Below are positions 1-10,465 of a stretch of DNA of 64,000 nucleotides, piece by piece; within the stretch, counting starts at the first letter, position 1; every line of letters begins with the position of its first letter. Source of the DNA: an uncultured delta proteobacterium. GTDB taxonomy: Bacteria; Desulfobacterota; Binatia; Binatales; Binataceae. The translations under genes were made by a program, and so were the position numbers. Location: NCBI GenBank assembly GCA_963808235.1, contig CAWEEQ010000004.1, positions 3,680,001 through 3,744,000 on the forward strand, read 5' to 3'. Below the pieces are notes generated by a model, which made no database searches, was not told the DNA's origin, and saw only the letters and a list, made by a program, of their open reading frames with translations.

Positions 1-720
1 ATCGCCGGCGCCGACCGCAACGATTCCACCGCGAGCCGCGAGCGCGTTCCCGACTACAGCGCGAGCCTCCAGTCCGACATCAAGGGCAAACGCGTCGGCA
101 TCATTCGCGAGCTGAACGACGGACTCAGCGACGAGGTCGCGAGCTCATTCAACGCCGCGCTCGATACTTTGAAATCGCTCGGCGCGATCATCGACCAAGT
201 TACGATTCCATCGCTTCCGCTCTCCGGCGCAATGAACGGGATCATCACCTGGGCCGAGGCGCTCGAGATCCACGAGGACTGGATGCGCACCCGGCCGCGC
301 GACTACGGCGATGACGTCCGGCGGCTGCTGGAAAATGGCATGATGACGCCGGCGACCAGCTACATCCGCGCGCAGCGGGCGCGCGCCCGCACCCTGGCGG
401 AGGCGAGCGCGGTGCTCAGCGACCATGACGTGCTGGTCGCTCCTGCAAGCGCGATCGTCGCCCCGAAGATCGGCAATACTCAGATGCTCGAAGCAGGTGA
501 AGACCGCGTTGACGTGGTAGCGGAGATCCTTCGTTTCACGCAGCCGTTCGATTCGACCGGGCAACCGGCGCTGGCTATTCCGACTGGACTCTCGCCGGCC
601 GGACTGCCCATTGCGATGCAGGTCATCGGGCGTCCATTCGGCGAAGTCGAAGTACTACAGGTCGCATCCGCCTACGAACGCGCCCGTGGTGAGATCAAGC
701 GTCCGCCGGAACTCGCATAA
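1..720 (+). CDS. Amidase signature family protein (GatA-like), 5'-partial
   Basis: Frame open from base 1 (IAGADRNDST...); C-terminal amidase motifs 'FTQPFDSTGQPALAIPTG...GLPIAMQVIGRPFGE'. Confidence 0.85.
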   Translation: MAGADRNDSTASRERVPDYSASLQSDIKGKRVGIIRELNDGLSDEVASSFNAALDTLKSLGAIIDQVTIPSLPLSGAMNGIITWAEALEIHEDWMRTRPRDYGDDVRRLLENGMMTPATSYIRAQRARARTLAEASAVLSDHDVLVAPASAIVAPKIGNTQMLEAGEDRVDVVAEILRFTQPFDSTGQPALAIPTGLSPAGLPIAMQVIGRPFGEVEVLQVASAYERARGEIKRPPELA

Positions 721-726
721 CAGCAC

Positions 727-764
727 TTACACGATCCGCAAATAGTCCGGTGACGGTAGCGGCG
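727..764 (-). repeat. Orphan duplicate of the 3' end of the GH172 gene (copy of 4354-4391); left boundary of inserted cassette
   Basis: Both copies encode PLPSPDYLRIV* on the minus strand; 32/38 nt identical, all 6 differences at third codon positions. Confidence 0.9.
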
Positions 765-832
765 TTTAGCCAGGCGGAGTCGCATCATGCAGGAGCCAAT
801 TCGCTGGGTCTTGAATAGCCTCCGTGCAGGGA

Positions 833-864
833 ATATTGCTAGTTACGCTTGTAACTAGTAATAT
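833..864. promoter_or_regulatory. Palindromic operator overlapping the start of the MerR-type regulator
   Basis: ATATTGCTAGTTAC-gctt-GTAACTAGTAATAT, 14-bp arms with 1 mismatch, AT-rich, ending on the ATG at 863. Confidence 0.65.
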
Positions 865-1339
865 GAAACGTGTCCTAAAAGAGAAATTTTCCGTAGGCGA
901 GGTGCACCAACTCACGGGTTTTAAACCGCGAATGCTCGACTACCTTTACCGGGCAGGCGTGTTGATCCCGACACTGGACCCGAGCCCTGGGAGAGGGAAG
1001 GATAGGTTCTATAGCTTTAACGACGTTGTTATCGGGAGGGCACTGAGCGATCTGCTCCGATGCGGAATTTCGGTCTCCAAGCTAAAAAAGGCGTTGGCGA
1101 AACTCCGGTCAAATCCCGCGATTGCACCCGACCATCTGCCCGGCAGATATCTTGTGACCGACGGAACCGAAGTTTTTTTCACAGATCGTAAGGATGTCTT
1201 TGTGAACCTCAATAAGGGCGGCCAGCTCGCCTTCGCCTTCGTTTTTCAGGCACGACGGCTCCGTGACGAAGTTCTGGAAAAGTGCGGCACGATGTCGGCG
1301 GCCGCTGCGGCACCTCGCCGCGCCGCTCAACCTAGGTGA
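863..1339 (+). CDS. MerR-family HTH transcriptional regulator
   Basis: 'FSVGEVHQLTGFKPRMLDYLYRAGVLIP...GRGKDRFYSFNDV...LLRCGISVSKLKKAL' MerR HTH pattern; C-terminal 'GQLAF' motif; ATG at 863 chosen over GTG 824. Confidence 0.8.
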   Translation: MKRVLKEKFSVGEVHQLTGFKPRMLDYLYRAGVLIPTLDPSPGRGKDRFYSFNDVVIGRALSDLLRCGISVSKLKKALAKLRSNPAIAPDHLPGRYLVTDGTEVFFTDRKDVFVNLNKGGQLAFAFVFQARRLRDEVLEKCGTMSAAAAAPRRAAQPR

Positions 1340-1407
1340 AGACTATGAGAATTCACGCTGGCGTTCTGTAGCCAGACCCTACGGATGGAGAATGATCGAC
1401 GGCGCTC

Positions 1408-2295
1408 GTGTTGAACCGGGACGAAATCAAAAGGCCGGGCATCATAGCTGAGAATGCTGCCAGTGAGGGCAACCAAAGCTGGCGCGCGGCCAGCTATGAC
1501 GTGCGCGTCGGAACAATTCTCGCGGTGGAATCGGACGGCCGGAGCCGTTTGAGCGAGGCAAACTTCTGCGTAGTTCCACCGCAGGGAATGGTTGAGGTCA
1601 TCTCGCTTGAGACCATCAAAGTGCCGGAGAATGTCGCCGGTTATGCCTCAGTATTGACGAGGCTATCGAGACGCGGCCTCTTGGCTCTAAATACCGGGAT
1701 AATCGACCCGAGCTACGAGGGGCCGGTTTCGGCAGTCATGGTGAACTTCGGGAAGACTGCGTTTAGCCTGAGCAGCGGCGACTCATTTTTGAGGCTTTCG
1801 TTTCATCAATGTACCGTTCCAGACAAGTTCGAGCCAATACGGCGCGTTGATCGAGAGGAATTCCTGCGCGAGCGAAAGAAGGAGGCTGGGGAGCGCTTTT
1901 CCGAATCTTTCCTCGACATCGCGGCGCATATCGATGAAATCGCCAAAGGCGCTTTCTGGCGGTATCTTGGCCGAGCGGCGGCGTTGGTAGCCCTTGTGGC
2001 GTTGATGGTAACCCTTGTCACGTGGGGAGTCACCCTTGGAGTTGCGCACTGGCAAGGGGGCTTTCTTTCCAAGGACCAAATCAGAGCGGCAGTGGATGAG
2101 TACTTCCAGAGCGACGATTTTAGGTCTCTCAAGTCAAACCTAGCAGAGATCAAAAGAGAAGATCTGCACGAGGAAGTGCGTTTGGCGGTGGAGCGGGCTT
2201 TGGCTAGTTCTCAGCCGAAGGCCGCAAACTCCGCCGAGCAAGGCGGTGCGGAAAACGCAAAGCGGCCAAGTCGGCAAGGAGCGGAGCACAAATGA
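1408..2295 (+). CDS. dCTP deaminase/dUTPase-fold protein with C-terminal transmembrane helix and helical tail
   Basis: 'AASYDVRVG', 'RRGLLALNTGIIDPSYEGPV..N.G' motifs; hydrophobic 'AAALVALVALMVTLVTWGVTLGVAHW' segment. Confidence 0.75.
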   Translation: MLNRDEIKRPGIIAENAASEGNQSWRAASYDVRVGTILAVESDGRSRLSEANFCVVPPQGMVEVISLETIKVPENVAGYASVLTRLSRRGLLALNTGIIDPSYEGPVSAVMVNFGKTAFSLSSGDSFLRLSFHQCTVPDKFEPIRRVDREEFLRERKKEAGERFSESFLDIAAHIDEIAKGAFWRYLGRAAALVALVALMVTLVTWGVTLGVAHWQGGFLSKDQIRAAVDEYFQSDDFRSLKSNLAEIKREDLHEEVRLAVERALASSQPKAANSAEQGGAENAKRPSRQGAEHK

Positions 2296-3311
2296 ACGGT
2301 TTTGACGGCCAAGCTCCAACCTTTGAATCGCTGGATGAGGTCCAAACGTGGGTGCTCTCCTCTCTGTTGGATCACGGGAGCCCGGTCACTTCCCGCGGGA
2401 TGCCGACTCTCGAACTCTTCCCGGTTTCATTCACCCTCGCGCATCCCCGGCGGCGCTGCATCACAAATCCGGAACGCCGCTGGAACCTCCCGCTTGCGAT
2501 TGGCGAATTTTGCTGGCACGCGACCGGATCGAACGACGTGCGCTTCATCGAGTATTACGCGCCTCGATGGAGGGAATTCACTGACGGGATTGCGATTCTC
2601 GGCAGTTGCTACGGACACCACATCTTTTCTCGGAAGGACGGGCAGCCCAGCCAATGGGAGCGCCTGATCGGTCTGTTGCGCGCGGAGCGCCATTCGCGGC
2701 GGGCCGTGCTCCAATTATTTGCGCCCGAACCAGGGCTCGACCCGGATACGAAGGATGCGCCTTGCACGTGCAGCGTTCAGTTCATGATTCGTGACAACCG
2801 GCTGCACGCGATTGTCTATATGCGGAGCAACGATTCGATCTGGGGCCTGCCGTACGATGTCTTTCTGTTCACCATGCTGCAGGAATTGCTCGCCGTCGAG
2901 TTTGGCGTCGAGTTGGGTTCGTATCACCATATCGTGGGTTCGCTGCACTTGTACCGGCGGCACTTCGAACTTGCCAAGCGGATCGTTTCATCCCGCGCCT
3001 CCTTCGCCTACGAAATGCCTCCGATCGAGGCGCACAGCGAGCTCCCATCGTTTTTGAAAATGGAAAGTTTGATCCGCACCAACGCTCCGGTGAGTGCAGA
3101 AATCGATGCGCTGCATCCCTACTGGAAGGATCTCCTTCATGTTCTGCGGTGGCATTCGCAACGGAAGCTGAACAATGGGCAGGAGGCAGACTTCCCCCAA
3201 GAATCCATATATGCGCCTTTACTGCTTGCGACGGCTCGGATCGCCACGAGCGCGGCGGAACACCAGCAGGCTGCCCCCACGCCATTGCGGCTTGGCCGTA
3301 GCGAGCACTAG
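2292..3311 (+). CDS. Thymidylate synthase-family enzyme, probable dCMP hydroxymethylase/methylase type
   Basis: 'SRRAV', catalytic 'DAPCT', 'MRSNDSIWGLPYD', 'GSLHLY'; ATGA overlap with upstream gene. Confidence 0.85.
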   Translation: MNGFDGQAPTFESLDEVQTWVLSSLLDHGSPVTSRGMPTLELFPVSFTLAHPRRRCITNPERRWNLPLAIGEFCWHATGSNDVRFIEYYAPRWREFTDGIAILGSCYGHHIFSRKDGQPSQWERLIGLLRAERHSRRAVLQLFAPEPGLDPDTKDAPCTCSVQFMIRDNRLHAIVYMRSNDSIWGLPYDVFLFTMLQELLAVEFGVELGSYHHIVGSLHLYRRHFELAKRIVSSRASFAYEMPPIEAHSELPSFLKMESLIRTNAPVSAEIDALHPYWKDLLHVLRWHSQRKLNNGQEADFPQESIYAPLLLATARIATSAAEHQQAAPTPLRLGRSEH

Positions 3312-3340
3312 CAAGACCGCGTGGAGCGCGAGAGATCGCC

Positions 3341-4318
3341 GTGGATCCCGATATCACGCCTCTTTTCGACACATACTGGCGATTTGCCGCTGAGCGCCAA
3401 GGGATCTTCTGCCGTCGGCTTACCGACCCGGCCGGTCCGTGGACGGACGATCCAATCCTGCGTTCCTATCGATTCACCAACGCATACCGAGCATCCGATC
3501 GGGTCAGCCAGTATCTCATCCGAGAAGTTCAGTATCGCGCCGACCGACCGCAAACTCCGCCCGAGTTATTCTTCCGGACGCTGCTGTTCAAGTTCTTCAA
3601 TCGCATCGGAACCTGGGAGGAAATCGAACGCGCGATCGGTCCGGTCGTTTGGGAGGGGTTCGACCTGACGGCGATCGCCCGTGTCTTTGAGACGATGATC
3701 GAGCGCGGGATGCCACTCTATTCCACCGCCTACATCATGCCGGCGCCGCGGCTGGGCTGCCGCCGGAAGTACGAAAACCATCTGGTTCTCTTGGCGCACA
3801 TGATAAGAGAACACCTGCCGGAGCGCATTGAACGTGCGCCGTCGCTTAAGTCAGTTTACGAAATGCTTCTCGCATTTCCAGGGATCGGCCGGTTCTTAGC
3901 CTTTCAGTACGCCGTCGACCTGAACTATTCGGCGATGCTCAACTTCGACGAGGCAGATTTTGTCGTGGCCGGACCGGGTGCGATCGATGGTATCGCCAAG
4001 TGTTTCGCAGACACCGCCGGCATGACTCCCGAGGATGTCATTCACTGGATGGTTGAGCGCCAGAAAGCCGAATTCGCGCGCCTTAGCTTACGGTTCCAAG
4101 ACCTGTTTGGTAGGCGGCTTCAGCCGGTCGATATCCAGAACATCTTCTGCGAGGTTTCGAAATATACTCGGGTGTCACACCCAGAGGTGGTTGGAGCTTC
4201 GGGGCGAACACGAATCAAGCAGACCTATCGCTCGAATTCGGCGCCATTGGCCGAGCCTATGTATCCGCCGAGATGGCGACTTCGTCTATCTCGACCGCTC
4301 ACTTATCTACACGCATAA
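3341..4318 (+). CDS. 5-hmdU DNA kinase helical domain / aGPT-Pplase1-like protein
   Basis: 'YWRFAAERQ.IF.RRL...PWTDDPIL..YRFTNAYRASDRVSQYLI', 'LLFKFFN', HhH-like 'FPGIGRFLAFQYAVDLNYS', 'GPGA.DG', 'DIQNIFCEVSKY'. Confidence 0.8.
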   Translation: MDPDITPLFDTYWRFAAERQGIFCRRLTDPAGPWTDDPILRSYRFTNAYRASDRVSQYLIREVQYRADRPQTPPELFFRTLLFKFFNRIGTWEEIERAIGPVVWEGFDLTAIARVFETMIERGMPLYSTAYIMPAPRLGCRRKYENHLVLLAHMIREHLPERIERAPSLKSVYEMLLAFPGIGRFLAFQYAVDLNYSAMLNFDEADFVVAGPGAIDGIAKCFADTAGMTPEDVIHWMVERQKAEFARLSLRFQDLFGRRLQPVDIQNIFCEVSKYTRVSHPEVVGASGRTRIKQTYRSNSAPLAEPMYPPRWRLRLSRPLTYLHA

Positions 4319-4353
4319 GCGGCTCTATGCCACCAGGAGCCGGTGGATAACGC

Positions 4354-5451
4354 CTACACGATCCGTAAGTAGTCCGGCGAGGGCAGCGGCGGGAACTTCG
4401 GCGCCGGCAGGGTCTGGTACCAAAACGCTACGGATGCGATATCGTCCTGGAGCGGGAGGAACTCCGCGCCGCGCCGCGGGTCGCCGGCCCATCCCAGCGC
4501 CTGGATCGTGACGCGCAGATCTTTCGCGAACCTTATCGGGTCCGCGATATGCCATCGGTACATTCCGAATCTCTGCTGCGACGCGTAAAGCCCGTCAGGC
4601 CGTATGACTTGCGCTAGTCCTGCATACGGCGTCGTGAACTCGCGGTACCCGCCATTTTCCTTGCCAACGTCGAAGTTATACGAGCCGCAAAAATAATCTT
4701 CGGTTCCGGTGCCGCAGATAGTCGGGAACTCGGCGTCGCCATCGATAAAAAACTTTATCTCGCCCTCGCCCCACCATCCGCTGTTGTGCACGCCCCACGC
4801 CATGTAGGTGCCGACGTAATGCCCGCGGCCGCTGATGCCGTCGAGAATCGTAAACACTTCCTTGTACGGAAGGGGATTCACGCGCCGGAACTGCGCATGG
4901 AAGTATGCGGCGTCATTAGGCACTTCGGTAAGTGAGTAATTGATTTGGTAGTATAGAATCATCGCCGTTTCGGCGGTGTTGGTCATCGTGATCCGGCATC
5001 GCTTGCGAAACGGCATCTCCCAATAGCAATTGAACGCGCTGCCCGGATTCACGCAGACCGCCAGCGACGAGACTTGCGCATAGCGGTTCCATCCGCATGC
5101 GAAAAAATCGCCGACCGGGCATTCCACCGACGGCGCCGCCGAGTCGTCCCAGTAAATCCGCATGATACTCGAGCGCCATGGCCCGGTCGGCGTCATCCAG
5201 ATTTGCGCGATCGCGCCCGCACCCGCGATATCGGCGATCACCTTCACTTCGCCCGGCTCGACTACGACGTACGGCGAGACTTTCCATCCGCGCCCGAGCC
5301 TGCGCGCCGGACTCTTTAACGGGTCGGGCGACGCCATCGCGCCCTTTCCTTTCTCGCCGGTCGGATTTTCGGGACTTATCGAGCGGCTTTCCGCCTTCGA
5401 CAGAAGCGAAAGATTGCCCATGTGCATGCCGAGCCCGTTGAACGATTCCAT
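4354..5451 (-). CDS. DUF2961 / glycoside hydrolase family 172 protein
   Basis: 'SRSISPENPTGEKGKG', 'WWGEGEIKFFIDGD.EFPTICGTGTEDYF', 'DDIASVAFWYQ'. Confidence 0.85.
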   Translation of the reverse strand: MESFNGLGMHMGNLSLLSKAESRSISPENPTGEKGKGAMASPDPLKSPARRLGRGWKVSPYVVVEPGEVKVIADIAGAGAIAQIWMTPTGPWRSSIMRIYWDDSAAPSVECPVGDFFACGWNRYAQVSSLAVCVNPGSAFNCYWEMPFRKRCRITMTNTAETAMILYYQINYSLTEVPNDAAYFHAQFRRVNPLPYKEVFTILDGISGRGHYVGTYMAWGVHNSGWWGEGEIKFFIDGDAEFPTICGTGTEDYFCGSYNFDVGKENGGYREFTTPYAGLAQVIRPDGLYASQQRFGMYRWHIADPIRFAKDLRVTIQALGWAGDPRRGAEFLPLQDDIASVAFWYQTLPAPKFPPLPSPDYLRIV

Positions 5452-6479: not shown

Positions 6480-8576
6480 CTATTCGACCAGCTCTTTCTG
6501 AAGTTCCTTGAACGACGTGATCGGCGCCGTGCAGGTGTGCTCGCGGCACACGTAAGCCGTCACACGTCCGTCGATTTGCCGCTTGTCCCGCACCTGCTCC
6601 GGAATGAAACCGGTTTGCGCACTCGCGGGATCGGCGACGTAAAGGGCGCGGTTGGGCACATAGATGAGGCCGAGGCGCTCGATCCATTCGAGCAAGTCCA
6701 CAGAGTGCGCGCCGCCCACCAGCACCACCTCGGTCGGCCCGCGTTGATAAAGATCGACCGCTTCGAGCATGTGCGAAAATCCGAACGGCTGTTTTTCTAT
6801 GAACTCGCGAAACAATTTCAGCGTCCGCTCCGCCTCGACGCGGTACCGCTCTTCGCCGGTGTAATCGTGCAGCCTGAGCAGCGCCATGGCGGCGGCGCTG
6901 TTGCCCGACGGCGTCGATCCGTCGAAGGCAGCCTTCGAGCGCGTGATCAACGCCTCGTGATCGTCCGAGGTGAAAAAGAATCCGCCCTTTTCCTTGTCGA
7001 TGAAGCGCTCGAGAATCACGCCGGCAAGCGTGCGCGCGTGCGCGAGGTACTTCGAATCGAGCGACGCCTCATATAGATCGAGCATCGCGCTTGCGAGCTG
7101 CGCATAGTCTTCGAGGTAAGCGTTGTGCCGCGCGACGCCGTCCTTGAACGATCGCTTGAGCGCGCACCCGTCCCACATCGCCGACATGATAAACCCGGCT
7201 GCGCGCTCGGCAGCCGCGAGATAGCGCGACTCATGCAGCGCGCGATATCCCTCCGCGAATGCGCCGATCATCATCGCATTCCACGCGACCAGAATCTTTT
7301 CGTCGCGCCCCGGTTTCACTCTTTGTTCGCGCGCCGCGAAGAGCTTCTGCCGAATCTCCCGAATCCTCGACCTGAGCTCATCTTCCGAGAGCTTGAACAT
7401 CCGCGCCGCGTCGGCAACTTCGACCGTTCGATGTGCAATGTTTGCGCCTTCGAAATTTCCCTCGATCGTGATGTCGTAATAGCGCTCCGCAACGTCGCTA
7501 AGCTCCGGACCAACCACCCGCTCGACTTCCTCCGGCGTCCAGACGAAGAACTTTCCTTCCTCGCCCTCGCTGTCGGCGTCCTGCGAGGCGTAGAAGCCGC
7601 CTTCAGGACTGGTCATCTCGCGGATCCCGTATTCGAAGATCTCGCGCGCGACGCTCAGGAACTCGGGCTCGTTCAGCGCACGGCCCGCATCCAGGTAGAG
7701 CCGCGCCAGGAGCGCGTTGTCGTAAAGCATCTTTTCGAAATGCGGCACCAGCCATCGATCGTCGACGCTGTAGCGATGGAACCCGCCGCCGATCTGATCG
7801 TAGATTCCGCCGCGCGCCATCTTCTGGAGTGTGTGCCGCACCATCTCGGCCATCGCCTCGTCGCCATCGGCGGCATGCACGCGAAGAAAAAGCGAGAACA
7901 CGAACGTGTTGGGAAATTTCGGCGCCTGCCCGAGCCCACCGTTGATACTGTCATAATGCGCGGCCAGCGCACGCGCCGAATCGGCCGCGAGATTCGCCCT
8001 CAAGTCATCGCCAGTCGGAGTGTAATTGGTGAGCGCGCCGAGCGCCTCAGTCAGCTTCTCGACGTTGCTGATGACTTCCTTCGCGCCGTCACTATAAGCG
8101 CGCGCGACCGCGGCCAGGATTCGCGGGAATCCGGGCATCCCGCCGCGATCCTCAGGAGGATAGTAAGTGCCTCCGAAAAACGGCCGCCCGTCCGGCGCAA
8201 GGAACATCGTGAGCGGCCATCCGCCGCGCCCGGTGATCATCTGCACCGCATCCATATAGATCTGGTCGAGATCCGGCCGCTCTTCGCGATCGACCTTTAT
8301 CGCGACGAAGTTTTCATTAATCAGCTTCGCGATCTGTTCGTTCTCGAACGACTCGCGCTCCATCACATGACACCAATGACACGCCGAGTATCCGATCGAG
8401 AGCATGATCGGCTTGTTCTCTGACTGCGCGCGCGCAAGCGCGTCAGGCCCCCACGCATACCAATCGACCGGATTGTACGCGTGCTGACGCAGGTACGGAC
8501 TCTGCTCATTGATTAGTCGATTCGGCTTCGCGCCGGCGCGACTATGATCGCTATCTGGATTGTTGCCCTGACTCAT
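6480..8576 (-). CDS. YyaL/SSP411 thioredoxin-domain protein (DUF255 + alpha/alpha barrel)
   Basis: '[21 protein letters not shown]', '[13 protein letters not shown]', '[12 protein letters not shown]'. Confidence 0.92.
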
Positions 8577-8698
8577 CTTCTTTCTTCGAAAATATCATGC
8601 ACGCGAATTCGCTGCGAACAGCCTCCCGCGCGGTATGTAGCAGAGCGGCGCGCCTGACGGTTACAATTCATCGCGATGCCTTCCCGCAGGGAAATACG

Positions 8699-10465
8699 AT
8701 GACATCGGCAACCGCGCCGCGCGACTCGGCTCCTGATCTCGCGAAAGCTCGCGGCGAGTCTCGCTTTCTTCTATGGGCAGGATGCGTCTGCGCGCTGTCT
8801 GCGATTTTGTTTTTCGCGCGCCTGGGCGCGAGAGCGTTGTGGTCGTCGGAATTCCGATGGGCCGAAATAGCGCGCGAGATGCTCGCCACGCACAACTACT
8901 TCTGGCCGACGATCAACGGCCACGTCTACTACGACAAGCCGCTCGGTTCATACTGGCTCGTCGTGATGTCGGCACCGTTCACCGGCGGCCTCAACGAGGC
9001 GGCAACGCGCCTCCCCTGCGCGATTGCCGGCCTGGTCGCAGTCATCCTCCTGATGCTCCTGGCGCGACGCCTCTACGACGCTCGCACCGCTGCATTGTCG
9101 GGCTTCATCCTGGCAACCAGTTTCAGCTTCGTATTCTTTTCGCGCCACGCGTCCGCCGACGTCGAGACGATCACCGGCGAGCTCGCCGCGCTGTTTCTTT
9201 TTCAGCGCAATCAGGATCGCGCCGGCGGATTCTGGGTCATCGGGCTCTGGCTGGTCATGGCCGCGACTTCGCTCACCAAGGGCCTGCTCGGCTTCGCGTT
9301 GCCGATCCTGGTGATTGGCGCATACTGCCTGCTTCGCGACGGGTGGTCCGAGCTCTGGCGGAGAATCTCGCGCGGCACTCTCGCCGAGCGCCTTCGATGG
9401 CTCATCGAGCGCAACCCTTGGTTCTTCAATTTCTACACGATCGCCGGCGTTGCGATCGGCATCATAGTTTATGCAGTGCCGTTCGAAATCTCGTCGCGCC
9501 TGATGGGCTCCGAAAAGGGACTCCGAATGGTTTTTCGGGAAAACGTGGTGCGGTTCTTCGAACCATTCGACCATCGCGGGCCTATCTATCTTTATGTCTA
9601 CGTGATCTTCGCCCTGATGGCGCCGTGGTCGATGCTCCTGCCTGCGGCGCTGGTCGAAGCGCATCACTTGCGCAGCATCGACGCCGAGCCCGCCCGCGCG
9701 GATCGATTCGCGCTGTGTTATTTCTGGGCGACCTTCATATTCTTCACGCTTTCGGGCTCGCGCCGCAGCTATTACATCCTGCCGATTCTACCGGCCGCCG
9801 CGACCCTGGTCGCAAGGATGCTCGCCTTTCCCGGTGCAATTCGCTCCGCGTTCGCTCGACGCCTGATGATCCTCGGTTACGCGATCGTCGCCATCGCCGT
9901 AGTCGGCGGCCTCGTGATGCTGCTGCCTGCCTCCGCGATCCTCTCTGGCGATCTCGGCAAATTGCCGCCGCTGCCGGACAAGTTCGTGTTCGTGGGGCTC
10001 TGGACGATCTCGATCGCAGGCATCGTGTACGCGTTGCGCAAATTTGAGCCGGGGCGCGTTGCAATCTCGATGGGCGCGATCGCGTACTGCGCGCTCGCCT
10101 ATATATATATATTTGCGATGCCTGCGGCTGAGGCCTATCGCGGTGAAAAACCCTTTGGATACGCGGTGCTGAGCAAGATTGGCAATCGCACCGACAAGCT
10201 CGCTCTGTTCAAGACTGTAGGACCGCTCTTCTATCTGAATCCGCCCAAGCCTCTCCCGGAATTCGACAAGAAGCAGGAACTGCGCGACGCGATTGCTAAC
10301 GCCGGCGTCGAGTGGTTCATCGTGCGCCGCCGCGATATGCCTCAACTCGACGTCCCGACCACAGTCGAACTAAGCGAAGCGTCATTCCCATGGGATAGCG
10401 GCTCGAGCCTGGACAACAAAGTGGTACTGGTCCGCGTGGGACCGTCGAACGATAGACAACGATAG
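8699..10465 (+). CDS. ArnT/GT39-like membrane glycosyltransferase
   Basis: 'LWSSEFRWAEIAREM...P..NG..YYDKPLGSYW', 'LTKG', many TM helices. Confidence 0.85.
   Translation: MTSATAPRDSAPDLAKARGESRFLLWAGCVCALSAILFFARLGARALWSSEFRWAEIAREMLATHNYFWPTINGHVYYDKPLGSYWLVVMSAPFTGGLNEAATRLPCAIAGLVAVILLMLLARRLYDARTAALSGFILATSFSFVFFSRHASADVETITGELAALFLFQRNQDRAGGFWVIGLWLVMAATSLTKGLLGFALPILVIGAYCLLRDGWSELWRRISRGTLAERLRWLIERNPWFFNFYTIAGVAIGIIVYAVPFEISSRLMGSEKGLRMVFRENVVRFFEPFDHRGPIYLYVYVIFALMAPWSMLLPAALVEAHHLRSIDAEPARADRFALCYFWATFIFFTLSGSRRSYYILPILPAAATLVARMLAFPGAIRSAFARRLMILGYAIVAIAVVGGLVMLLPASAILSGDLGKLPPLPDKFVFVGLWTISIAGIVYALRKFEPGRVAISMGAIAYCALAYIYIFAMPAAEAYRGEKPFGYAVLSKIGNRTDKLALFKTVGPLFYLNPPKPLPEFDKKQELRDAIANAGVEWFIVRRRDMPQLDVPTTVELSEASFPWDSGSSLDNKVVLVRVGPSNDRQR

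Follow-up and report, generated by a model that had tools for sequence, protein, structure and literature searches.

The window, a 64,000-nucleotide stretch of DNA from an uncultured delta proteobacterium, carries a mobile four-gene cassette at positions 765-4354 that encodes, in this order, a MerR-type protein, a dUTPase/Dcd-fold (DCD-like) protein, a thymidylate synthase (TS)-family protein and a PF18723 protein. The TS-family protein is predicted to be a dCMP 5-hydroxymethylase: its residues argue strongly that, like gp42 of phage T4, it most likely makes 5-hydroxymethyl-dCMP from dCMP and methylene-tetrahydrofolate. For the cassette as a whole, we lean toward a nucleotide-modification-type anti-phage system, related to DS-4 of E. 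coli, that would make 5-hydroxymethyl-dCMP from the dC nucleotide pool.

Substrate signature of the TS-family protein

The TS-family protein (positions 2292-3311, plus strand, 339 residues) matches Pfam Thymidylat_synt with an E-value of 1e-27. Positions 2755-2955 encode its residues 155-222 (sequence KDAPCTCSVQFMIRDNRLHAIVYMRSNDSIWGLPYDVFLFT...), which include Cys158 of the PCT motif (codon TGC, 2763-2765) and Asp189 of the GLPYD motif (codon GAT, 2856-2858); a preliminary description of this DNA had given the motifs and the Asp codon exactly. That description had also considered the protein to be cytosine-specific and unlikely to be a second ThyA, and the comparisons below bear this out.

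In a MAFFT alignment with gp42 and gp29 taken from their GenBank records, the column of Asp189 contains the Asp of T4 gp42 (RNDYAW) and the Asn of SPO1 gp29 (GANLCQ). In phmmer alignments, Asp189 lies opposite Asp186 of MilA and opposite the Asn (PFN) of four thymidylate synthases. All 30 aligned homologues (45-87% identity) carry this Asp, which is thus a family trait and no chance substitution. The best solved relative found by phmmer is the CMP hydroxymethylase MilA (E 5e-45), with a match over residues 34-292 that includes the C-terminal extension; thymidylate synthases match at E 1e-18 or weaker and T4 gp42 at E 6e-13. The residue numbers are those of MilA plus 3, with Cys158, Arg136, Ser179, Asp189, His219 and Tyr221 corresponding to Cys155, Lys133, Ala176, Asp186, His216 and Tyr218.

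In this enzyme group, ribo-specific members carry Lys/Ala and deoxy-specific members Arg/Ser, and Asp selects cytosine where Asn selects uracil (PMC5175136). Arg136 and Ser179, the deoxyribose signature, are invariant among the 30 aligned homologues. In T4 gp42, Asp145, located three residues before the Cys, contributes to water activation together with Ser94 and Tyr96 (PMC6400193), and these residues align with Asp155, Ser105 and Tyr107 of the window enzyme. The corresponding position of ThyA is hydrophobic (Leu143 in E. coli TS) instead of a water-activating Asp (PMC6400193); where the window enzyme has Asp155 (DAPC), the thymidylate synthases aligned by phmmer read l-a/p-p-C. The catalytic Cys158, Glu72 (the Glu60 equivalent) and the 3'-OH-binding residues His219 and Tyr221 are invariant as well. 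Across the 30 homologues, every residue of the three signatures (cytosine, deoxyribose and hydroxymethylase) is either invariant or conserved to at least 90%.

Because of the signatures formed by Asp189, by Arg136/Ser179 and by Asp155/Ser105/Tyr107, we read the protein as a dCMP 5-hydroxymethylase and not as a second ThyA. A ThyA identity was rejected, with Asp189 at the position of the uracil-selecting Asn177 of E. coli and Asp155 in place of a hydrophobic residue. The NCBIfam ThyA equivalogs score at most 77 bits against cut-offs of 108-576 (the best 76.9 against 327; TIGR03284 65 against 108). ThyX is encoded in the genome, and the TS-family protein is the only PF00303 match genome-wide. 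TS homologues of this Asp/Arg/Ser clade are common in bacteria, with 593 relatives at E <= 1e-10, and are annotated plainly as thymidylate synthase; term searches of the literature found no experimental work on the clade.

With MilA as the best solved match, C-terminal extension included, the enzyme could be taken for a CMP hydroxymethylase of secondary metabolism that provides 5-hydroxymethylcytosine for the synthesis of a nucleoside antibiotic or pyrimidine antimetabolite. MilA and BcmA share with it the cytosine Asp and the Asp three residues before the Cys. Nevertheless, such a role is very unlikely. Where MilA has the ribo-specifying Lys133 and Ala176, the window enzyme has Arg136 and Ser179, and in the equivalent MilA double mutant (A176S/K133R) the use of CMP is abolished (PMC5175136). 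The cassette contains neither a MilB-type partner nor the biosynthetic genes of an antibiotic cluster, and the partner that it does contain is a dNTP-fold protein.

T4 gp42 resembles the window enzyme in its fold, Cys nucleophile, cytosine Asp, Arg/Ser pair, Asp three residues before the Cys and Ser-x-Tyr motif. The pairing of gp42 with the gp56 dCTPase follows the same logic, in that a dCTP-handling enzyme feeds a dCMP hydroxymethylase. However, the identity to gp42 is only 27%, and gp42 lacks the C-terminal extension of about 100 residues. The window enzyme is bacterial and chromosomal and is partnered by a membrane-anchored protein of the dUTPase/Dcd fold, whereas T4 gp56 is an all-alpha MazG-type enzyme. 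In contrast to T4, there is no dNMP kinase or glucosyltransferase in the cassette.

Proteins encoded on either side of the TS gene

The upstream gene (positions 1408-2295, plus strand) overlaps the TS start with its stop codon (ATGA). It encodes a dUTPase/Dcd-fold domain (about residues 1-160; Pfam DCD 3.6e-8, dUTPase 1.5e-6), one transmembrane helix (about residues 190-215, with a hydropathy peak that begins at residue 190) and a charged tail. The PF00692 score is 28.5 bits (cut-off 22), and the best matches in the PDB are 8y1w and 9ln0, followed by dUTPases. The identity of a bona fide dCTP deaminase was rejected. TIGR02274 scores 52.2 bits, below its cut-off of 92.8, and the protein has a Val where two bona fide Dcd proteins of related genomes (the alignment left out the bona fide Dcd of locus L183) carry the Glu of the LE motif, which we take to be the catalytic Glu of Dcd. 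The counterpart of the dUTPase motif III (IDxDY) reads IIDPSY in this protein, with Ser for the second Asp, against TIDADY in the genome's own Dut; the Dcd-like PDB entries 8y1w and 9ln0 likewise lack this second Asp. The protein most likely binds or hydrolyses dCTP and would in this way supply dCMP. Even a pyrophosphatase activity is uncertain, because the protein has neither the Glu of Dcd nor the motif III Asp of dUTPases.

The downstream gene (positions 3341-4318, plus strand) encodes a 325-residue PF18723 protein (E 3.7e-107), a clade-1 aGPT-Pplase ('HMUDK_hel') without a kinase domain. The match extends from residue 6 to residue 284 and covers model positions 1-280 of 281, and the protein has no other Pfam domain. 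PF18723 relatives are named 'nucleotide kinase domain-containing protein' by NCBI, and the Pfam name comes from 5-hmdU DNA kinase. The kinase name of the family can be traced to fusion proteins such as SP10 gp186 (PMC5889632) and to fusions with Tmk or MazG; among the best 120 of 759 longer relatives, PF18723 is fused to MazG plus MazG_C or to thymidylate kinase.

The preliminary description had taken the protein for a kinase-like member of a family characterised on 5-hydroxymethyluracil, and had proposed that it phosphorylates hmC or that a deaminase joins hmC to an hmU kinase. The database names favour a kinase, but they derive from the fusions, and this reading is extremely unlikely. A regular-expression search found no Walker A motif (P-loop) in the protein and a Pfam search no PF18748; in the 93%-complete genome PF18748 was not found either, in a search that was silent in control genomes too. 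The proven kinase of phage M6, gp54, is a separate PF18748 protein of 187 residues, whereas M6 gp55 matches PF18723 instead. The counterpart of the window protein is gp55 (26% identity; PF18723, 8e-56), with which it shares the motifs RFxN..R..D, AGPGA and CE..KY.RV. The work on 5-hydroxymethyluracil covered the kinase and a clade-2 AADT, and gp55 could be omitted from the lysate reconstitution (PMC8989533). Since the partner is not a kinase, a phospho-hmC chemistry has no basis, and no deaminase is encoded in the cassette.

The AF2 model of the PF18723 protein (pLDDT 92) has a helix-hairpin-helix glycosylase-like fold. In VIA-align, the best match is PaMx11 gp46 PUGT/AADT (clade 2, PDB 8z2n; Z 11.4, 227 residues, rmsd 3.9), followed by QNG1 (Z about 10) and AlkA/OGG/EndoIII-type proteins (Z 6-9); the top rows all belong to the helix-hairpin-helix superfamily, with the restriction that a Z below about 13 is not decisive alone for helical proteins. 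Against PDB sequences, phmmer found no match at E <= 1, and the best Foldseek match of the model in the PDB has an E-value of 0.076; usable Z scores came from the VIA re-alignment alone.

Every one of 37 homologues has Cys270 and at least 90% of them have Glu271; the pair aligns with the LCE of M6 gp55. Cys270 is situated on the last long helix of the model. In PUGT, Cys247 on the C-terminal helix attacks C6 of the flipped-out pyrimidine (PMC11472151), and the equivalence of the two cysteines is suggested by position only. A comparison of the 37-sequence alignment with M6 gp51 (clade 2) by hhalign gave a probability of 0.1, and Cys270 was therefore not aligned by sequence to the AADT cysteine. 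Furthermore, AADT requires a substrate phosphorylated by a kinase, and such a kinase is missing from the cassette. A full-length PF18723 is what the protein has in common with M6 gp55 and the C-terminal part of SP10 gp186, both from thymidine-hypermodifying phages. The phage clade-1 proteins are encoded beside 5-HMUDK, AADT and a dUMP (Asn) hydroxymethylase, whereas the window protein is encoded beside a dCMP (Asp) hydroxymethylase, with no kinase or AADT. We speculate that the protein most likely handles a 5-hydroxymethyl-pyrimidine, as a nucleotide or once in DNA. Tentatively, it may be a kinase-independent Cys-Glu enzyme that acts on the host-made hydroxymethyl-pyrimidine, as a nucleotide N-glycosidase or as a maker of reactive or blocking lesions in DNA.

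A glycosylase-like PF18723 protein would also fit a system directed against modified phages, in which the proteins, instead of making hm-pyrimidines, bind or destroy phage hm-dCTP, hm-dCMP or hmC-DNA by means of a TS-fold sensor and a glycosylase-fold remover. DNA glycosylases directed at the modified DNA of phages form a recognised class of defence (PMC11078745), QNG1, the second-best structural group, is a nucleotide N-glycosidase, and MazG, the usual partner of PF18723, is an NTP pyrophosphatase. We consider this unlikely. The TS-family protein retains the full catalytic set for forward hydroxymethylation (Cys158, Glu72, Asp155, Tyr107 and Asp189, all invariant), and the cassette has no nuclease or TIR effector.

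Boundaries, mobility and sister loci

The first gene of the cassette (positions 824-1339, plus strand) encodes a MerR-type helix-turn-helix protein of 171 residues (Pfam MerR_1 2.8e-5), the probable cassette regulator. A palindrome with 14-nt arms is located at 833-864. The gene is kept with the cassette in loci L088 and L091 (88% amino acid identity) and L089 (49%).

The cassette is flanked by 37-nt direct repeats at 728-764 and 4355-4391 that are identical at 32 of 37 positions and form the longest repeat within 600-4600. The right copy is the present 3' end of a DUF2961 gene (4354-5451, minus strand); the left one duplicates, as an orphan, the final 11 codons and stop of that gene and reads PLPSPDYLRIV followed by a stop on the minus strand. 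Among 61 related genomes, the TS gene is present in one, the window's own. Contigs at 82-88% nucleotide identity carry the same cassette with UvrD on one side and, on the other, a gene that directly adjoins UvrD in this genome. The flanking repeats, the other site in a close relative and the presence of the TS gene in one of 61 genomes indicate that the cassette is mobile. Its GC content (0.54-0.59, compared with 0.60-0.65 in the flanks) differs too little to carry weight.

No promoter-like sites were found in 600-4500, and the two terminator-like sites there lie on the wrong strand and are fewer than in shuffled sequences. The 15 kb upstream contain no tRNA genes. No RNA sequencing runs were listed that carry the cassette sequence. 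Contigs from four soil-metagenome runs of one study span parts of the cassette and both junctions, and no joint that skips the cassette, as expected for an excised or empty form, was found in the contigs of those four runs. PADLOC gave nothing for the DCD-like, TS-family and PF18723 proteins and a weak mad1 match for the MerR-like protein (E 0.004).

Because the protein families are best known from phages and the cassette is mobile, it might be the inert relic of a phage module for DNA modification that a mobile element carries along and that is devoid of present function. This is quite improbable. All four open reading frames are intact, homologues at 45-87% identity show no change in the catalytic residues, and the gene order is kept in the relatives at 82-88% nucleotide identity. 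Moreover, 113 relatives were found in metagenome contigs as against only 7 in viral contigs, and there are no phage structural genes near the cassette.

Within this TS clade, the partner that stays constant is the gene for the membrane-anchored dUTPase/Dcd-fold protein, found ahead of the TS gene in 48 of 52 loci (or in 38 of 41 groups when loci are grouped at 97% nucleotide identity). The third slot of the sister loci varies: it holds a dCMP deaminase gene in 23 of 55 loci, a PF18723 gene in six (4 of 43 groups) and neither in 26. The loci from the metagenome scan are Asp-type by construction, because they were retrieved with the peptide pattern WGLPYD. The PF18723 gene follows the TS gene in so few loci, and neither third-slot gene is present in so many, that PF18723 is dispensable to the DCD-TS core pair. 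The deamination link proposed in the preliminary description has support only at the level of the family, where dCMP deaminase genes occur in the third slot, instead of the PF18723 gene rather than between it and the TS gene; the cassette itself encodes no deaminase. Sister loci adjoin Dcm-HNH-Vsr, integrase, resolvase, transposase, Eco57I-like and ImmA genes. A defence-island context is seen in these loci, and the genes on either side of the window's cassette are housekeeping genes.

In 81 PF18723 loci, counted by our own clustering of open reading frames in high-GC DNA with one Pfam-checked representative per cluster and shadow frames ignored, MazG-MazG_C occurs 59 times, a short TS-like gene 37 times and a long TS-like gene 9 times (10 reading frames). 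By the same count, ImmA/IrrE is found in 36 loci, TIR in 26 and DCD+TM in 12. The TS-like genes beside PF18723 genes elsewhere have Asn in 44 or 45 of 46 cases, so that the contrast between an Asp-type TS and a PF18723 partner, which had been pointed out before, is real.

Dpd and Dnd islands place other modifications in the DNA of bacteria themselves, and the cassette could similarly place 5-hydroxymethylcytosine, or a derivative that the PF18723 protein produces, in host DNA as an epigenetic or restriction-protecting mark. The enzyme logic is that of the T4 hmC pathway, with a dCTP-handling protein and a dCMP hydroxymethylase, the phage relatives of PF18723 are located in DNA-hypermodification clusters, and Dcm, Vsr and HNH genes often adjoin the sister loci. 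Cellular homologues have been noted and unexplored modifications suggested (PMC5889632). We nonetheless find self-modification doubtful. The cassette has no dNMP kinase, dCTP exclusion, partner nuclease or glycosyltransferase, it is sporadic (one of 61 relatives), and its third gene is swapped for a dCMP deaminase gene or missing in sister loci, a pattern easier to reconcile with pool chemistry than with a permanent mark on DNA.

Relation to DS-4 and proposed function

Bacterial nucleotide-modification cassettes form a combinatorial family to which the window's cassette belongs. Members mix an NTP pyrophosphatase or dNMP kinase, PF18723 and a TS-like enzyme, and some also include TIR, ImmA or a deaminase. 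The one member of this family that has been validated experimentally as an anti-phage system is DS-4 ('NTTI') of E. coli, described with DefensePredictor, which consists of a TS, an adenylate-kinase-like dNMPk, PF18723, TIR and Nmad2 (PMC13092281). Like the cassette, DS-4 is an operon of a TS-family gene, a stand-alone PF18723 gene and a gene for a nucleotide-handling enzyme. In contrast to it, DS-4 includes genes for a dNMP kinase, TIR and Nmad2 but none for a DCD-like protein, and its TS, read by eye from the supplement sequence, appears to be Asn-type and of another clade. A term search of the main text of PMC13092281 found no mechanism for DS-4. The model of that paper also flags a 327-residue TS (GLPHD) and a 283-residue DCD+TM protein as predicted defence genes (PMC13092281). 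Most likely, the window's cassette is a cytosine-type variant beside DS-4-like PF18723 systems.

Nucleotide-depletion defence by dCTP deaminase (bioRxiv 10.1101/2021.04.26.441389) is similar in that it defends by removing dC nucleotides. The depletion protein combines a P-loop kinase with a CDA/APOBEC-type deaminase, according to domain matches in the supplement of PMC13092281, whereas the DCD-like protein of the cassette is of the Dcd/dUTPase fold and lacks the deaminase Glu.

In the anti-phage system that we favour, the MerR-type protein would regulate the cassette, and the membrane-anchored dUTPase/Dcd-fold protein would take dCTP to dCMP. The TS-family enzyme would then turn dCMP into 5-hydroxymethyl-dCMP, and the PF18723 protein, with its DNA-glycosylase fold and Cys-Glu pair, may act on the 5-hydroxymethyl-pyrimidine. 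Diversion of the dC nucleotide pool to hydroxymethylated nucleotides would starve or poison replicating phage DNA. Because the cassette has no dNMP kinase, entry of hm-dCMP into DNA would depend on host kinases.

If the TS clade makes hm-dCMP, the synthesis of hydroxymethyl-cytosine nucleotides extends beyond T-even phages and antibiotic pathways, and would be a widespread mobile bacterial trait in tight association with a dUTPase-fold protein that is anchored in the membrane. The 'nucleotide kinase domain-containing' or 'HMUDK_hel' proteins of the type studied here bear a misleading name, as they have no kinase domain. The cassette offers a minimal four-gene setting, free of kinase and TIR, for the function of clade-1 aGPT-Pplase/PF18723 proteins. 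Should the tentative role of the PF18723 protein be correct, it would be the first activity assigned to clade-1 aGPT-Pplases, on cytosine rather than thymine derivatives, and would represent a new immune principle in which the base-modification chemistry of phages is turned against replicating phage DNA.

Active-site residues of the TS homologue

The thymidylate synthase (TS) homologue of the cassette is a 339-aa protein encoded on the plus strand at 2292–3311, with a match to Pfam PF00303 (E = 1e-27). Its residues 155–222 are encoded by the stretch 2755–2955, which includes Cys158 within the motif PCT (codon TGC, 2763–2765) and Asp189 within GLPYD (codon GAT, 2856–2858). A phmmer search against solved structures aligns Asp189 with MilA Asp186 and, in four thymidylate synthases, with the Asn of the PFN motif. 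An alignment with T4 gene 42 and SPO1 gene 29, taken from GenBank records, places the Asp of T4 gp42 and the Asn of SPO1 gp29 in the same column. Asp189 is a family trait, shared by all 30 homologues compared (45–87% identity), and the cytosine-type Asp reported in the preliminary description is exact in both codon and column.

The nearest solved protein is MilA, a CMP 5-hydroxymethylase (E = 5e-45, residues 34–292, including the C-terminal extension); in the same search, thymidylate synthases follow at 1e-18 or weaker, and T4 gp42 at 6e-13. The NCBIfam ThyA equivalogs score far under their cut-offs. Active-site numbering in the window's protein is that of MilA plus three. As described for MilA, Lys-133' and Ala-176 are the hallmark of the ribo-specific MilA and BcmA, deoxy-specific enzymes are marked by Arg and Ser, and Asp-186 marks cytosine enzymes where Asn marks uracil enzymes; CMP use is abolished in the A176S/K133R mutant (PMC5175136). 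At the corresponding positions the TS homologue has Arg136, Ser179, and Asp189, the combination of a dCMP enzyme. With MilA as nearest solved relative and ThyA equivalogs under cut-off, these residues bear out the earlier proposal that the gene is unlikely to be a second thyA. In the ternary complex of the T4 enzyme, water activation is assigned to Asp-145, three residues before the Cys, together with Ser-94 and Tyr-96, and E. coli TS has Leu-143 at the position of Asp-145 (PMC6400193). Asp155, Ser105, and Tyr107 of the TS homologue occupy these three columns, and all are conserved. Because of the dCMP residue combination and the conserved water-activation residues, the protein is most likely a dCMP 5-hydroxymethylase, and the sequence strongly suggests that it would convert dCMP and methylene-THF to 5hm-dCMP.

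The 93%-complete host genome has no PF00303 gene apart from that of the cassette; it contains ThyX and a normal Dut. No ThyA besides the cassette gene was found in this genome, nor a bona fide Dcd scoring over the TIGR02274 cut-off. A sample of 26 genomes from the class, with the host among the 26, gave 9 that have a Dcd over that cut-off.

The DCD-like partner and the variable third slot

The upstream gene (1408–2295), whose stop codon overlaps the TS start, encodes a dUTPase/Dcd-fold domain, one transmembrane helix (near residues 190–215), and a charged tail. When aligned with two bona fide Dcd proteins of related genomes and the host's own Dut, this DCD-like protein carries Val in place of the Glu of the Dcd LE motif, and Ser replaces the second Asp of Dut motif III; judged by these two residues, it is therefore not a deaminase. 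Among solved structures, its nearest relatives are two entries of 155 aa that bear the label dCTP deaminase and likewise lack the Dcd Glu and the second motif III Asp; dUTPases rank next. A role as a dCTP pyrophosphatase or in dCTP binding is plausible, and the membrane protein would supply dCMP from dCTP or gate the system.

The TS clade comprises 593 relatives at E ≤ 1e-10. We examined 80 metagenome loci, which are Asp-type by construction since the search pattern included WGLPYD. Upstream sequence of 900 nt or more is available at 52 loci, and in 48 of these a DCD-like gene directly precedes TS (38 of 41 groups after merging at ≥97% nucleotide identity). On the downstream side, 55 loci have 700 nt or more available; of these, 23 have a dCMP/CMP deaminase (PF00383), 6 have a PF18723 gene, and 26 have neither (16, 4, and 23 of 43 groups). 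The six PF18723 loci are those with a TS at least 70% identical to that of the window, and the HAE and PCxxC motifs are retained in 28 of 29 deaminase ORFs. The core is therefore DCD-TS, with a variable third slot.

Neighbours at the sister loci include Dcm-HNH-Vsr, integrase, resolvase, transposase, Eco57I-like methylase, and ImmA genes. At sister locus L123, the TS and dCMP deaminase pair is flanked by two adjacent thymidylate kinase paralogues (8007–9385, minus strand), which could phosphorylate the hydroxymethylated nucleotide, and by a 1227-aa ORC/CDC6-like protein with a protein kinase domain. At L110 (7473–9765, minus strand), a P-loop kinase-like domain fused to adenylosuccinate synthetase and a DUF7002 protein adjoin a Dcm-HNH-Vsr-DCD-TS-deaminase block; the fusion locus may be another nucleotide-directed conflict gene.

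The PF18723 protein

The 325-aa product of 3341–4318 has PF18723 (HMUDK_hel) as its sole domain match (E = 3.7e-107, residues 6–284), and no Walker A motif was found in it. Phage M6 encodes its proven 5-hmdU DNA kinase separately, as gp54 (187 aa, PF18748), and the PF18723 protein is the neighbouring gp55, which is 26% identical to the window's protein over the whole length and shares its Cys-Glu motif. The family name traces to fusions such as SP10 gp186 (PMC5889632, Table 3), and formation of the glycinyl-thymidine product in reconstituted M6 lysates did not require gp55 (PMC8989533). The alternative that 3341–4318 encodes a 5-hmU-type kinase, as first supposed, thus fails on domain content. 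Phage records label PF18723-type genes "aGPT-Pplase1 domain-containing".

Among the best 120 of 759 longer PF18723 relatives, PF00303 is absent and the fusions are with MazG and MazG_C or with thymidylate kinase. In this set (P0121–P0240), bacterial proteins 51–57% identical to the window's carry either MazG and MazG_C (about 650 aa) or thymidylate kinase (about 575 aa). The NCBI name "nucleotide kinase domain-containing protein" probably stems from such fusions.

An AlphaFold2 model (pLDDT 92, with 37 homologues as input) has its best structural match in PUGT/AADT, PaMx11 gp46 (Z = 11.4, 227 residues aligned), with the queuosine-5'-monophosphate glycosidase QNG1 at a Z of about 10 and HhH DNA glycosylases at 6–9. 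Across the homologue alignment Cys270 never varies, and Glu271 is kept in at least 90% of the sequences. Cys-247 of PUGT, on a C-terminal helix, attacks C6 of a flipped-out pyrimidine (PMC11472151). Cys270 may be its equivalent, by position only, because a profile comparison of the PF18723 alignment with one clade-2 protein gave no match. Speculatively, the protein would act on a hydroxymethyl-pyrimidine through Cys270 and Glu271. Its target might be the nucleotide, because it shares a slot with a nucleotide deaminase, is fused to nucleotide enzymes, and resembles QNG1; alternatively it might be DNA, given the likeness to PUGT and the phage relatives in DNA-modification clusters.

Species genomes contain 421 confirmed PF18723 relatives, with 50–63% identity across phyla. 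At 81 loci the neighbours include MazG-MazG_C (59), a short TS-like gene (37), ImmA/IrrE with an inhibitor domain (36), TIR (26), a papain-like peptidase (19), DCD with a transmembrane helix (12), and a long TS-like gene (9 loci, 10 ORFs). The Asp189 column is Asn in all 37 short genes and in 7 of the 10 long ORFs, the others being one Asp and two fragments. Since nearly all TS-like genes beside PF18723 have Asn, the window's Asp enzyme is the unusual partner. Among the 81 loci, only one other long gene adjoining PF18723 is Asp-type (GLPTD; L034, 7715–8701); its genome, a Sandaracinaceae MAG, encodes a short Asn-type TS-like gene as well. The short proteins (269 aa; L009, L013, and other loci) keep the Cys and Asn, have no Asp three positions ahead of the Cys (GPCLSH), and just exceed the Pfam TS cut-off (26.2 versus 24.3 bits); by sequence they are a divergent TS-fold family.

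Mobility and possible role of the cassette

Among 61 related genomes, the TS is present in the window's own only and PF18723 in three. A 37-nt direct repeat (728–764 and 4355–4391, 32/37 identical) brackets the cassette. On the minus strand both copies encode PLPSPDYLRIV-stop, the 3' end of a DUF2961 gene, and all five mismatches are synonymous. In metagenome contigs of 82–88% DNA identity, the MerR-DCD-TS-PF18723 block is flanked by a UvrD gene and another gene, and in the host genome these two adjoin each other directly, 10 kb upstream of the cassette. The host flanks are housekeeping genes, and soil-metagenome contigs cover the cassette and both junctions. The cassette is mobile and sporadic. 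Shortly after the GTG annotated as the start of the MerR-like ORF, positions 833–864 form a near-perfect palindrome (14-nt arms, 13/14 complementary, 4-nt spacer). This palindrome may serve as the operator of the regulator, and translation may in fact begin at an ATG near 863.

The E. coli system DS-4, consisting of TS, dNMP kinase, PF18723, TIR, and Nmad2, has been validated as anti-phage, and the model in the same study flags a 327-aa GLPHD TS and a 283-aa DCD protein with a transmembrane helix as predicted defence genes (PMC13092281). Because of these precedents and the mobile, sporadic nature of the cassette, we favour a role in phage defence, in which the dC pool would be diverted or poisoned. 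Counting against defence, PADLOC gave no match for the three enzymes of the cassette, no effector such as TIR is present among its genes, and the DS-4 TS appears to differ from the cassette TS. The competing explanations are that the cassette modifies the host's own DNA, that it has an anti-modification or sensor role, that it belongs to secondary metabolism, or that it is an inert relic.

In the literature searched, we found no description of the bacterial Asp/Arg/Ser hydroxymethylase clade, of its near-obligate DCD partner with a transmembrane helix, or of a third slot in which dCMP deaminase and PF18723 alternate. Every domain family in the cassette is already known, and DS-4 shows that operons of TS plus PF18723 can defend.
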